The position numbers were made by a program, and so were the translations under genes. Positions 15,889 through 64,000 of a stretch of 64,000 nucleotides of DNA are shown piece after piece; the stretch's first letter is position 1; each line of letters begins with the position of its first letter. Source of the stretch: Scenedesmus sp. PABB004 (taxonomy: Eukaryota); contig JABVCE010000002.1 of assembly GCA_014905635.1 (NCBI GenBank), forward strand, positions 992,001-1,056,000, written 5' to 3'. The notes under the pieces were generated by a model. That model made no database searches. It was not told where the DNA came from and was given only the letters and a program-made list of their open reading frames with translations.

Positions 15889-17721
15889 AGGGCGCGGGGC
15901 GGGGGCGCGCGCGGCGTCGGCGGCGCGCGCGGGCGCCCGGCGCGGGCGCGCGCGGGGCGCCCGGGTGCTGCGGCTGCAGCGGCGGCGGCGGCTGCAGCGG
16001 CGGCGGCGTGCGCGCGCGCGCCTGCGTGGCGGTGATGACGGGCTTGCCGTTGTAGTTGCACTTCTGGATCATCATCTTCTGCGCCAGGAAGATCTGCGGC
16101 AGGCAGGCGGGGGGCAGGCAGGCGTCGGGCGCCGCGCGCGGGGCGGCGCCCGCCGCTGGCCACCGCCGTGCCGCGCCGCGCGCGCGCGCCGCGCCGCCCC
16201 GCCCGCGCACCTTCTCGGTGGGGATCTCCATGCCGAGGTCGCCGCGCGCGACCATGACGCCGTCGGTCTTGTCCAGGATCTCGTCAAAGTTCTGGATGCC
16301 CTCCTGGTTCTCCACCTTGCTGATGATCTTGATGTAACGCCCCCGCTCGCCCAGCACCTGGCGGCGGCGTGGTGGCGCGCGCGCGGCGCTCGGCGGCGCG
16401 CGGCGCTGCCTGCCCGCCAGCGGCGCCTGCGCCGCGCCGCGTTGGCCGGCCGGCCCGCCTGCCCCCGCGCCCGGCTCGCCCCACGCCCCACCACCCTCCC
16501 CGCGTCTGCGTGCGTGTCACCTCGCGGATGAGGTCGAGGTCGCTGCCCTTGCGCACAAAGCTCGCAGCGATGAGGTCGATCTCGTGCGCGACGCCCCAGT
16601 TGACGATGTCGTCCACGTCCTTCTCCGTGAGCGTGGGCAGGTCGACGACGACGCCGGGGAGGTTGACGTTCTTGCGCTCGCCCAGCATCGCCGTGTTCTT
16701 GCACCGCGCGCGCACCGTGCCCGCGGCGGGGTCGGTGCTGATGACCTCGAGCACGATGCTGCCGTCCGCGCACAGGATGCTCGCGCCCGGCTGCACGTCC
16801 TGCGCGAGCTTCTTGTAGCTGCGCGCGCGCGGCGGGCGCGGCGGCGGGCGCGGCGGCGCGGGGTCAGGGGCTGCAGCGCGGGGGGCGGGGGGCGGGGCGC
16901 TGCTGGACAGCGCGGAGCGCAGCACCGCAGAACTCCAGCTGAACGCGATTTGTGAACAGCAAAAAGGCATCATCTGCCGCTCGCAGATCGCGTTCAACTG
17001 GAGTTCTGCAGTGCCGGCTGGCCCAGGCCCAGGCCCCGCAGCTGTGCGTTCAGCCCGCGCGGCTGCTGCTCCCGCTGCCGGCGCGGCCGCGCGCGCGCCC
17101 GGCCGTGCGGCGCGGCACGACCATGCAGACCGCCGGCGCGCGCGCGCGCCGCTGTCCGTCCGATGTGCGGCTCGTGCGGCGCAAATCAGACCGACAGCGG
17201 CGCACGCGCGCGCCGGCGGTCTGCACGCCGCGCGCCGCCGTCGCTTTCGCGCGCGCCGACGCTGCTGCTGCCGCGCGGCCGCCGCGCGCCGCTGCTGCGC
17301 GCCGCTGCCGCGCGCCGCGCGCTGCGCCCGCCGTGCGCGCCCCGCACCTCATGGCGATGAGGCCGTTGTTGCCGGCGGCGGCGTAGTCGGTGGTGATGGT
17401 CACCTCCTGGCCGGAGACGAGCTGTACCGGCTTGCCGCCCTCGAGCATGCCGGTGCGGATCTCGGGGCCCTTGGTGTCGAGCATGACGGCGCACATGATC
17501 TTGGTGTTCTCCATGGCGCGCCGCAGGTTGTCCAGCGTCTCCTTGTGGTACTCGTGGGAGCCGTGGCTGAAGTTGAAGCGCGCGACGTTCATGCCCGCAC
17601 GCAGCAGCTCCTCAATCACCTCGACGGCGCGGCTGGCGGGGCCGAGCGTGCAGACGACCTTGGTCTTGCACACCGAGCTCGGCGTGCCCGCCAGCACCGC
17701 ATCGAGCCCCAGCTGCACCAT
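15005..17721 (-). CDS. PYK: Pyruvate kinase, cytosolic plant-type
   Basis: [102 protein letters not shown] at 17721, TGA at 15005. Confidence 0.97.
15855..15886. repeat. Poly-G tract (32 nt) in a pyruvate kinase intron
   Basis: Uninterrupted G run on the + strand. Confidence 0.9.
16922..17014 (-). ncRNA. Candidate intronic pre-miRNA-like hairpin A (40-bp stem, 13-nt loop)
   Basis: Arms 16922-16961 and 16975-17014 are reverse complements at 34/40 positions. Four of the six differences are G-U pairs on the transcribed minus strand. The hairpin is seen directly; the miRNA function is inferred. Confidence 0.5.
17124..17225 (-). ncRNA. Candidate intronic hairpin B (46-bp stem, 10-nt loop)
   Basis: Arms 17124-17169 and 17180-17225 are reverse complements at 42/46 positions. 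Two of the four differences are G-U pairs on the minus strand. Confidence 0.45.
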
Positions 17722-18329
17722 CAGAGCGGCCCCCGCGCGCGGGGAGAGGGCGGGGCGAGTGGAGCTGCCGGCGTCCCGGGCGGGCGGCGCGCGGGGCGAC
17801 GGGCGAGCGGGGAGCGCACGGGAGGGGCGGGAGTGGGGGCGGTGGCGCGGCGGGGCGGGCAATGGAGCGCGGGCCGGGCGGCGGGAGCTCGGCAAGCGTT
17901 AGGTAGCGGCGTCGAACCCTGGCAATGCCCCAAACCGCCCCGGCTGCTCGAGAAGCCCCGGGACAGCAGCCAACGCGCGCGCCCGGCGGCAGCGGCGTCG
18001 CGGGGCCGTGTTTTCGGGAGGCCCTGCCGCCATCGCGGGGCGTGCTCGCGGCTCCGCGCCGACACACGCCCGCGCGGCGCGGGATGGCAACCCGCGATTC
18101 ACGCACACTGCTAAACGTCCCGTGGCGCTGCGCCGGCACGGCCGCGCCCGCCGCTGCCGCCGCGCCCGCTGAGCGCCGTGCTGCGCCGCGCCCGGCCGCC
18201 GAGCTTACACGCACCCTGGGCCCTGCCAGCAGGCGCACACCATTCGCCGGCAACCCGCACGCCCTGCCAGGGCCCGCTGCGGCGCAGGACGCCTGCCACC
18301 GCACGGCCGCTGCGATCCCGACGTCGCCG

Positions 18330-19086
18330 TCATCTGCTGAGCAGCGCCGTCGCGGCGCCGCTGAGCAGGCCGGCGTTGAGGTAGTCGGCGGCCACGTCGT
18401 CGAGGTGGTCGTCAAAGTCGGCGAGCCGGCCGTGCAGTCCCGCCGCGTGGGCGTTGAGATAGCGCGCGCGCAGCGCCTCCCAGCCGCCGCCGCCCGCGAG
18501 CGCGAGCGCGGCGCCGCCGCCGCCGCCGCCGTCGGGCGCGCGCCGCCACGCGCGCGGCCCGCCGCCGCCGCCGGCCTCGCGCAGCAGCAGCGCGAGCGGC
18601 GGCTCGGCGCCGCCGGCGCGGCTGAACGCGGCGAGGCGGGGGCCGTCGACGGCGACGATGAACGCGCCCGGCTGGCGCTCCGCGAGGCGGTCCGCGATGC
18701 GCTTGCCCGCGGGGTGCACGTCGGCCGCGTCGAAGCGCGCCTCCGCGTGGTAGTACCCCACCAGCGCCTGACCGCACGCGCCCGCGTACGCCTCCACCTG
18801 CGCGCGTGTGCGTGCGACGCGACGCGGCGTCGGCGGCAGCAGCACAGCGGCGCACACCGGCGGCCGACCGCGCGGCGGCCGGGCGGCGCACCTGCGCGAG
18901 CGCCGTCTCCACGCACGGCGCGAGCAGGCCGGAGAGGTGGAACAGCGGCACCGCGACCGTCACGCTCGCGCCCGCCGGCCCCGCGTCGCCGAGCAGCACG
19001 CCGCACACGGTGCACGACGGGTGCTTCGCCGCGTGCAGCAGCACCGTCAGCGCCGCGTCCTCCGACAGCACGTAGGAGGGCGCCAT
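18330..19086 (-). CDS. EMC8/9: ER membrane complex subunit 8/9 homolog (UPF0172, MPN-like); 2 exons
   Basis: MAPSYVLSEDAALTVLLHAAKHPSCTVCGVLLG, AVPLFH, LVGYYHA, LADFDDHLDDVAADYLN. Intron at 18798-18891. TGTAA (-) at 18205-18209. Confidence 0.92.
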
Positions 19087-20175: not shown

Positions 20176-21725
20176 TTAGCCGAGCTGCATGGCCCCGCCC
20201 GCGCCCGCGCTGCCGGGCTCGACCTTGGCGCCCTCGGCCGCCGCCGCGCCTCCGTTGGCCGCCGCGCCTCCGTTGGCCGCCGCGCCGCCGCCAGGCTTGG
20301 CCTTGGCGCCCTCGGCCGCCGCCGCGCCTCCGTTGGCCGCCGCCGCCGCCGCCTCCTGCTTCACCGCGGCGCCCGCCGCCGGCTCGGCCTCGACGCCCGC
20401 CGCCGGCGCGGCCTCGCCGCCGCCGCCGCCGCCGCGCCGCCGCCGGCGCCGCTGGGCGTGGACTGCGCATAGAAGAGCATGTAGGCCTGCACGCGCGCCA
20501 CGTCGTCGTCGCTGACCGGCACGACCCAGGGGTCGTTCAGCAGGTACCAGGCGCCGCCCGCGCGCACGTAGCTCACGTAGTGCCCGCCCGCCATGTCGCC
20601 GTGGTGCGCGATCACCCCAAAGAGCTCGTACAGGCAGCGCGCCGCAAAGCCGGCGGCGCCGGGCACGGACGCGGCCGCCGCGGCGCCGGCGCGGCCCGCG
20701 CCGGCGCGGCCGGCGAGCACCGCGCTTGTGGTGAAGGGCGCCATGTCGAGCCCCGACAGCGGGAAGCGCAGCGGGACGTCGAGCTTGCGCGGCCGCGTGC
20801 CGCCGCCGCCGTGCTCAAAGCGCTTCACGTGCAGGCAGAGCACGAGCGGCAGCACGCGCACGCTCAGCTGCTTCAGCGCCGCGCCCGCGCTGCCGCAGCG
20901 CCCGCAGCGCCAGTGCGCGCCGGGGCCGAGGCGCTCGGGGCGCACGAAGCGGCGCAGGCAGCCCGCGAGGGAGAGCTCGTTCATGCGCTGCGGGGAGGCG
21001 GGGCGGGAGGCAGGGGGGGGGGGGCAGGGGGCAGGGGGCAGGGGCAGGGGGCAGGGGGTGGCAGCGGCGGCTCAGGGACGCGCGCGCCAGGGGCGCGCTG
21101 CCGCGCGGCGGCGCAGCGCGGGCCGGGAAACCCCGCGACGCCGCCCGCCACGCGACGCCGCGCGCGCGCGTGCTCACCAGCACGGGCGGCGGCGGCGGCG
21201 CCTTGCGCGCCGTGGAGGGCGTGGAGCCGCCGGAGGCCTTCTTGGCGCCCGCGCCGGCCGCCTTGGCGCCCGCGCCGGCGCCCGCGGGCTTGGCCGCCGG
21301 CGCGGCCGCGGCGCCGCCGCCCGCGCCGCCGCCCGCGGCCTTGGCGCGCGCGGCCGCCTGCGCCGCGAGCGCGGCGGGCGGCTCGGGCCGGCCCGCCGCG
21401 CGCGCCGCGGCGGCGGCCTCGGCGCTGACGCGCGGCAGCCCCTCCACGACGAGGCGGCCCTCCTCGTAGAGCTGGCGCGCCCAGGCGCAGAGGTCCTCCT
21501 TGCGATAAAAGCGGCCCTTCTCGTCGCGCCGCTTCATCACGCCCTGCGCCAGCGCCGCCGACGCGAGCAGGTCGTGCGCGACGGTCGGCGGGCCGCCGCC
21601 CGGCCGGCCGCCGCTGGCGTGGTGGCTCCGCACGCTCGGCTTGGCGGGCGGTGGCGCCGCCGCCGGCGGCGGCGGGCCCGGCGCGCCCCCGGGCGGGGCC
21701 GCGGCCGCGTACGGCGGGCCCTGCC

Positions 21726-48623: not shown

Positions 48624-64000
<15,377 letters not shown>

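Follow-up and report, generated by a model that had tools for sequence, protein, structure and literature searches.

The first intron in the coding sequence of a pyruvate kinase (PK) gene, located in the 64-kb stretch of DNA that we analyzed as a whole (hereafter, the window), carries two long hairpins, hp1 and hp2, which are unique in the window and lie among repeat-rich flanks inside well-defined intron boundaries. The explanation that we favor, at a probability of roughly 0.45, is that hp1 and hp2 are palindromic duplications or inserts, young and present in a single copy, which fold in the transcript and leave with the intron, acting at most as passive substrates for Dicer. The window itself has a GC content of about 79% (75-81% in each 2-kb bin). 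Its host has dynein heavy-chain genes, and a scan of 27 ORFs in the window, and in the window only, showed no Dicer-like or Argonaute domain.

The PK coding sequence runs along the minus strand from 17721 to 15005 and is divided into six exons, with the features at and around its first intron collected in Table 1. Read as minus-strand letters, exon 1 ends with ATG AG at 17348 and the intron begins with GTGCGG at 17347, while GCGCAG closes the intron at 16819 and C TAC AAG opens exon 2 at 16818. Three independent lines of evidence indicate that all 529 nt of this intron are non-coding. First, an RNA contig from a relative (run X10, about 88-90% identical) skips exactly these 529 nt at the 16818/17348 junction, with CT..AC on the plus strand. 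Second, the PK proteins of relatives (P0003, P0005, and P0011) read IAMSYKKLA without interruption across the junction. Third, the tblastn alignment with an intron-free homologue, which shares 75% sequence identity with exon 1, continues up to 17350 and resumes at 16820. Moreover, an RNA contig from a relative covers exon 1 (17348-17722). An earlier reading made from the sequence alone (hereafter, the sequence-only reading) had proposed an oversized PK intron here, and its exact coordinates are borne out. PK has four further introns, of about 160, 117, 180, and 198 nt, which makes intron 1 longer by 2.7-4.5 times. We refer to it as the first intron of the coding sequence, and an additional intron may lie upstream in the 5'-UTR.

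Table 1. Features of the PK gene and its first intron, with positions counted within the window.
Feature	Position	Strand	Description
PK coding exon 1	17348..17721	-	ends GLIAM + first two bases of Ser codon; ORF and translation
Intron 1 of coding sequence	16819..17347	-	529 nt, GT..AG, phase 2 (AG/C Ser codon)
5' part of intron 1	17226..17345	-	GC-rich tandem repeats, periods 13, 26, 33 (Tandem Repeats Finder)
hp2	17124..17225	-	46-nt arms, 91% Watson-Crick, 10-nt spacer; RNA: 52 pairs over 17117-17232
Spacer between hairpins	17015..17123	-	GC-rich; GGCCCA x2.8, 16-nt unit x1.9
hp1	16922..17014	-	40-nt arms, 85% Watson-Crick, 13-nt spacer; RNA: 45 pairs over 16915-17021
3' part of intron 1	16823..16903	-	C-rich on RNA strand; tandem repeats, periods 7, 12, 21, 28
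PK exon 2	16521..16818	-	(S)YKKLAQDV...DLDLIRE

According to the repeat finder, the arms of hp1 span 16922-16961 and 16975-17014, and those of hp2 span 17124-17169 and 17180-17225, and so the two independent, near-perfect inverted repeats of the sequence-only reading were found in the places that it had given them. As transcribed-strand RNA, hp1 folds at -79.1 kcal/mol (z -13.5) and hp2 at -109.8 kcal/mol (z -10.6), with 0 of 200 shuffles as good in either case. Each stem is disturbed by two 1x1 mismatches and one bulge, and by nothing more. The hp1 RNA has a 9-nt loop and an inner stem that relies on G.U pairs, and the apex of hp2 is a small irregular loop region. Here, we noticed that the base of the 5' arm is TGCAGA in both stems, located on the transcribed strand at 17010-17005 in hp1 (opposite TCTGCG) and at 17225-17220 in hp2 (opposite TCTGCA), which is in line with the earlier claim that TGCAGA pairs there with TCTGC. 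In fact, exact TGCAGA...TCTGCA pairs at a distance of 20-200 nt occur just once in the window, as part of hp2 (shuffle mean 0.04), and the motif pair of hp1 differs from the exact one by a single transition on either strand. From TGCAGA onward, 10 of the first 13 bases of the two hairpins agree, as read from the sequence. Beyond this base, hp1 and hp2 do not resemble each other significantly when compared with shuffles (global p 0.10 and local p 0.24).

Both hairpins stand out clearly within the window. An inverted-repeat scan, set to a minimum arm length of 26 nt within 120 nt, found 63 pairs, of which 25 were listed. Among these 25 listed matches, hp1 and hp2 are the only pairs of at least 40 nt with at least 85% complementarity, and the others (also from the 25 of 63) are either 70-76% complementary or shorter matches of pure GC. 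Likewise, in a sliding fold of 110-nt segments taken every 10 nt on both strands, with the energy regressed on GC content (n = 12,780), the two hairpins took ranks 1 and 2 with z-scores of -6.39 and -6.30, followed by a third at -3.17. Both hp1 and hp2 scored best on the minus strand in this GC-corrected fold.

The remainder of intron 1 is made up of the repeat-rich segments given in Table 1, with the direct-repeat families D1, D7, and D11 also showing in its 5' part and a distance of about 110 nt separating the two hairpins. The sequence-only reading had attributed much of the extra length to the inverted repeats, and this stands in part. The hairpins account for 195 nt of the 529 nt (223 nt with the extended stems), though the flanks are tandem repeats, and intron 1 minus both hairpins is still longer than the other PK introns. 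Since the intron otherwise consists of tandem repeats, the locus would be prone to slippage or template switching. On our favored explanation, each hairpin most likely originated either as an inverted duplication made on the spot or through the insertion of a small palindrome, with the host intron meanwhile growing by the expansion of GC-rich tandem repeats.

The base composition of hp1 is suggestive of its age. With a GC content of 0.55, hp1 is the lowest stretch of the window (of the 63,908 segments of 93 nt, 19 have a GC content this low or below it), and the window's minimum for segments of this length falls within 16895-17041. Given that the local GC content around hp1 is about 85-90%, and that all six mismatches between its arms (6/6) are of the transition type, hp1 fits a fairly recent AT-richer insert that is decaying under GC-biased substitution, as judged from our own two-state estimate and not from the output of a tool. 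On this view, hp1 would be comparatively young and derived from AT-richer DNA. Alternatively, its low GC content could reflect a constraint on the sequence and not youth.

An AT-richer unit resembles foreign or mobile DNA as well, and a second origin for the hairpins is that they are two miniature inverted-repeat transposable elements (MITEs) from a single superfamily whose terminal repeats begin with TGCAGA, and that both hopped locally into the same intron. We consider this improbable. It would account for the TGCAGA common to both units and for the agreement of their first bases, and each unit does look like a single long terminal inverted repeat closed by a short loop. Still, hp1 and hp2 are inverted repeats from end to end, and any palindrome trivially has terminal repeats in this sense. 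MITEs and introners carry both terminal repeats and target-site duplications. With exact flanks and with boundaries shifted by -14 to +3 nt, we found no direct flank of at least 3 nt beside hp1 and nothing more than a trivial CGC beside hp2, and likewise no duplication as exact flanks at the ends of intron 1. The lack of significant similarity between hp1 and hp2 also speaks against two elements of one superfamily, as does the absence of a transposase-like Pfam domain among the 27 coding-like ORFs of the window.

Neither is there a sign of dispersal. No second copy of hp1, hp2, or intron 1 occurs in the 64-kb window, and none of the hairpins or the intron occurs in 84 fetched loci, which include 80 PK loci (387,247 nt). 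Exact-word matches in three public collections provided no copy either. A 23-mer of the hp1 arm gave 0 exact matches in metagenome contigs and 0 in viral contigs, and a 20-mer of the same arm gave four matches in prokaryote genomes that extend for 20-22 nt only, which is about what chance gives by our own arithmetic. Within the window, stretches complementary to hp1 elsewhere are at most 11 nt long, and other matches to hp2 reach up to 19 nt, all of them in its (GC)n core. The outcome that the sequence-only reading had named as pointing to MITEs, numerous scattered copies flanked by target-site duplications, was not seen in the small amount of sequence searched (the window, the 84 loci, and exact words).

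To place the host, we compared the last PK exon (164 aa) with its homologs. The closest match is a JGI protein (P0003) with an identity of 99% (about 95% in exon 2), and Monoraphidium neglectum follows with 97%. Chlamydomonas, Volvox, and Pleodorina (96% each) fall with Dunaliella and Haematococcus in the range of 95-96%, whereas trebouxiophytes reach 77-87% and land plants about 75%. From these values, the host is a chlorophycean alga whose nearest named relative belongs to the Sphaeropleales, and this matters for how probable intronic hairpin miRNAs are beforehand. With exon 2 as the query, we also retrieved PK loci from metagenomes and kept the best 80 of 302 relatives. Exons 1 and 2 are contiguous, with no intron at the site, in 79 of these 80 loci, and the remaining one (L078) is interrupted there, in the same phase, by an intron of about 157 nt that contains no inverted repeat. 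One hairpin, in locus L075, was found among the 80 relatives' PK loci by a scan counting Watson-Crick pairs only (minimum arm length 30 nt, minimum pairing 84%), which detects hp2 and misses hp1, and is therefore a valid comparison for stems of hp2 grade only.

These relatives bear on a stronger version of the mobile-element origin, in which the whole of intron 1 would be a transposon-made intron, or introner, of the kind treated in the available text of Gozashti et al. (2022; PMC9860276). In common with MITEs and introners, the hairpins are short, non-coding inverted-repeat units in an intron, and 79 of the 80 relatives' PK genes lack an intron at this position. In contrast to both, hp1 and hp2 show no target-site duplication, no second copy, and no mutual similarity in the sequence searched, and in contrast to introners, the splice sites of intron 1 lie in repeat DNA outside the hairpins. 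Moreover, the 79 relatives that lack the intron are remote ones, with 66-83% identity in exon 2, and most of them do not look chlorophycean, while L078 is occupied at the site, and so the case for a recent gain is not made. Comparing the PK intron in relatives, as the sequence-only reading had advised, therefore gave 79 distant loci of 80 lacking the intron and one intron lacking the hairpin. Judged from these sequences, the intron-1 site appears patchy among relatives, a pattern that establishes neither a recent gain nor an ancient intron for the host lineage.

Among 18 sequencing runs, none contained more than 0.10 of the window's sampled words. Contigs from X1, X2, X4, and X10 were aligned at 88% likeness, and the well-fitting ones come from relatives. 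A 416-nt DNA contig from X1 is near-identical over 17336-17746 (five differences) and stops 12 nt into intron 1, outside the hairpins. X1 is a freshwater run in which this alga or a conspecific strain appears to be present at low depth. In the bin 16940-17036, the depth is 0 in X1, X2, and X10 and 16 in X4, and in the bin 17134-17230, it is 0 in X1 and X4, 16.9 in X2, and 68.8 in X10. Such cover of the hairpin bins says nothing about expression or presence, as these are GC-rich, low-complexity sequences and the contigs are those of relatives.

The sequence-only reading had itself proposed an intronic two-hairpin small-RNA precursor. Spelled out, a Dicer-like enzyme would cut the PK intron and release 20-22-nt miRNA-like or siRNA duplexes, and would thereby tie the small-RNA output to the transcription of a glycolytic gene. 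We regard this as unlikely on balance, but as a serious contender. Several properties of the hairpins are what such a precursor would have: stems of 45 and 52 bp with few mismatches on the sense strand of an intron, each of them long enough for two 21-nt duplexes; a common TGCAGA at both stem bases; and a pair of folds that head all 12,780 GC-corrected ones while lying 110 nt apart, like a polycistronic cluster. Folding both strands, a check recommended along with that reading, gave a more stable structure on the transcribed strand for hp1 (-79.1 versus -65.0 kcal/mol) and hp2 (-109.8 versus -96.1 kcal/mol), a difference of about 14 kcal/mol each. In the same direction, the purine-pyrimidine mismatches comprise seven G.U on the RNA strand as against two C.A, for which we calculate a one-sided binomial probability of about 0.09. 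Stability and G.U count taken together hint at selection on the RNA, though the bias is not significant (p ~0.09), and a mutation bias linked to transcription would give the same strand pattern.

The chlorophycean class to which the host belongs does have hairpin miRNAs derived from introns. In the available text of Valli et al. (2016; PMC4817775), mRNA precursors are the source of 61.1% of the Chlamydomonas miRNAs held with high confidence, nine of which derive from introns and two from UTRs, and DCL3 of Chlamydomonas reinhardtii cuts intronic stem-loops such as cre-miR1157 in intron 22 of Cre12.g537671, which upholds the background on Chlamydomonas miRNAs that the sequence-only reading had drawn on. 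As with the precursors described there, hp1 and hp2 are near-perfect, GC-rich, sense-strand stem-loops in a spliceosomal intron of a coding gene from a chlorophycean (PMC4817775). They differ from the Chlamydomonas precursors in being two hairpins in one PK intron, in having no relationship to them by sequence or through Rfam, and in being known from sequence alone. Their non-conservation is not counted against a miRNA origin, since Chlamydomonas miRNAs are themselves described as not phylogenetically conserved (available text of PMC5511227).

Other results weigh against a small-RNA precursor. A search of the whole window against Rfam found 0 families at the gathering score, and the best match, to MIR1151 on the plus (non-transcribed) strand, stayed at 33.1 bits, short of the gathering score of 90, the rest being generic sub-threshold hairpins. 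The 11-nt limit on complementary stretches to hp1 is a further point against it, from what is a weak search for targets confined to the window. In addition, Dicer and Argonaute have been lost in some small GC-rich green algae, with Medakamo hakoo being described without either in the available text of PMC9871001. A more elaborate form of the same idea would make the locus a bicistronic intronic small-RNA module, in which a Dicer-like enzyme recognizes the TGCAGA/UCUGC stem base and cuts the PK intron, with the output (or a Drosha-like self-limitation of PK) coupled to glycolytic transcription and with the AT-rich sequence of hp1 held by selection against the GC drive. This, we think, has only about the standing of a long shot.

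The stems could also act on splicing, in either of two versions that we hold very improbable even when counted jointly. In one, they would hide decoy acceptors, namely the CAG of the TGCAG that ends at 17006 and 17221, and in the other, they would shorten the effective distance from the 5' splice site to the branch point, in each case modulating the splicing of PK. The 5' arms of both hairpins indeed contain an acceptor-like TGCAG inside the stem, the structure is favored on the RNA strand, and folding shortens this 529-nt intron by about 200 nt, while the remaining PK introns measure about 200 nt at most. However, an unprotected CTGCAG lies outside the stems, at 16876-16871, in the stretch that leads from hp1 to the true acceptor, and hiding the two decoys would therefore leave the problem in place. 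RNA contigs displayed no alternative junction at 17006 or 17221, which says little, as these contigs come from relatives. The need for stems, moreover, would have arisen only from the insertions themselves. Yeast introns offer a comparison in their "zipper stems", which are structures that shorten the effective distance between the 5' splice site and the branch point. As there, hp1 and hp2 are stable stems in an unusually long intron of a genome with short introns, though they close locally and do not pair regions beside the 5' splice site and the branch point.

Palindromes of a different kind are known from chlorophyceans. In the available text of Smith and Lee (2009; PMC2670323), those of the Volvox carteri organelles average 50 nt, with a maximum of about 78 nt, and have 3-5-nt loops of the TAAA/ATTT type, and their degenerate counterparts in nuclear DNA are reported to be inert and in part decayed. 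Our hairpins resemble them as hairpin-forming, non-coding chlorophycean DNA, and the degeneration of nuclear copies would fit the AT-richer hp1. On the other hand, the units here are 93 and 102 nt, with DNA spacers of 13 and 10 nt, loops of 9-13 nt, and no motif of the TAAA/ATTT type.

Young, single-copy palindromes without a dedicated function are favored because there is no second copy in the sequence searched, no target-site duplication as exact flanks, and no Rfam family at the gathering score, and because the intron of L078 is free of a hairpin. Under this explanation, each palindrome would snap into its 45-52-bp stem in the PK pre-mRNA, assuming that it folds in vivo as predicted. The folding would loop out about 200 nt and leave unaffected the 5' splice site, the C-rich acceptor region, and a CTGAC at 16867-16863. 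This CTGAC lies 45 nt before the acceptor, with a C-rich tract following up to the acceptor itself, and it would be a branch-site-like element by the general branch consensus. The hairpins would then be removed with the lariat. As a self-folding insert in a first intron is presumably cheap, hp1 and hp2 could persist neutrally, and if the alga has a Dicer-like enzyme, the stems would still be diced into hairpin-derived small RNAs that constitute proto-miRNA material.

What counts against this neutral explanation is, above all, the clustering. At about two such hairpins per 64 kb, the occurrence of both in one 529-nt intron has a chance of about 1% by our own arithmetic, and is thus unexpected. 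Together with the strand preference and the shared motif at the stem base, this clustering forms the main facts that neutral palindromes explain poorly, and it is on account of these three that the small-RNA precursor stays alive as a reading.

Either way, the locus is a candidate and not a discovery. If the hairpins are inert, intron 1 would be a small and well-defined case of intron growth by palindromes and GC-rich tandem repeats in a compact genome. If they are diced, the locus would offer a clean example of how a miRNA-like locus is born from single-copy palindromes in the intron of a highly expressed housekeeping gene, within a chlorophycean distant from the Chlamydomonas model, and would extend the coding-gene intron as a miRNA host beyond Chlamydomonas, at an extreme base composition.

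When the pyruvate kinase (PK) loci of relatives were collected from metagenomes with exon 2 as the query, and the best 80 of 302 relatives were compared, only one locus, L078, whose GC content is 62%, was found to have an intron that matches PK intron 1 in both site and phase. In the other 79 of these 80 loci, exons 1 and 2 are fused, and the intron-1 site is therefore phylogenetically patchy.

In a close relative, two of the JGI gene calls, P0004 and P0006, have unrelated N-terminal sequence joined to PK sequence. The PK portion of P0004 begins with exon 2. The residues at the start of this exon, YKKLA, are immediately preceded by 12 unrelated ones, and thus the switch from unrelated to PK sequence falls on the intron-1 site. 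In P0006, 275 unrelated residues are followed by PK sequence from mid-exon 2. For both gene calls, an intron 1 that is retained or differently spliced could account for the unrelated N-termini, as could a gene fusion or chimeric contigs.

The GC content across the entire window is 75-81%, an extreme value where a nuclear genome has spliceosomal introns. Within PK, the low-GC islands other than hp1 (the intron-1 hairpin at 16922-17014) are conserved coding exons, with exon 3 being one example. When the 3' 300 nt of intron 1 (16818-17114) were compared with their own reverse complement, 70% identity over 313 nt was obtained, centered on hp1, which is lengthened into a long imperfect palindrome by G-rich and C-rich repeat flanks. 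This 70% equals the background for GC-only inverted repeats in the window.

As for intron 3, the joined form without it was found in the RNA runs. Two runs that are guessed to contain DNA likewise have contigs of this form, one in X1 and five in X2. These contigs likely stem from relatives that are without intron 3, or else from RNA in those libraries. In X1, a freshwater metagenome run, a 416-nt contig matches window positions 17336-17746 with 5 differences in 411 nt, and it seems that the alga or a close strain is present there at low depth.

Features of the PK gene, its L078 counterpart and the neighboring genes
Feature	Position	Strand	Details
PK intron 3	16094-16210	-	117 nt
PK exon 3	16234-16373	-	
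L078 intron	L078:2841-3000		~157 nt; GTGAGG...GTGCAG, then C TAC AAG
UPF0172	18330-18959	-	Pfam, 3e-19; directly upstream of PK
Ubiquitin C-terminal hydrolase (UCH)	20364-21071	-	Pfam, 1.2e-21
Dynein heavy-chain pieces	56799-57254 and 62086-62859	+	Pfam, AAA_6 6.9e-30

Among the neighboring genes, the dynein heavy-chain pieces, whose Pfam MT stalk match scores under its cut-off, indicate either a flagellate stage or the use of intraflagellar transport.
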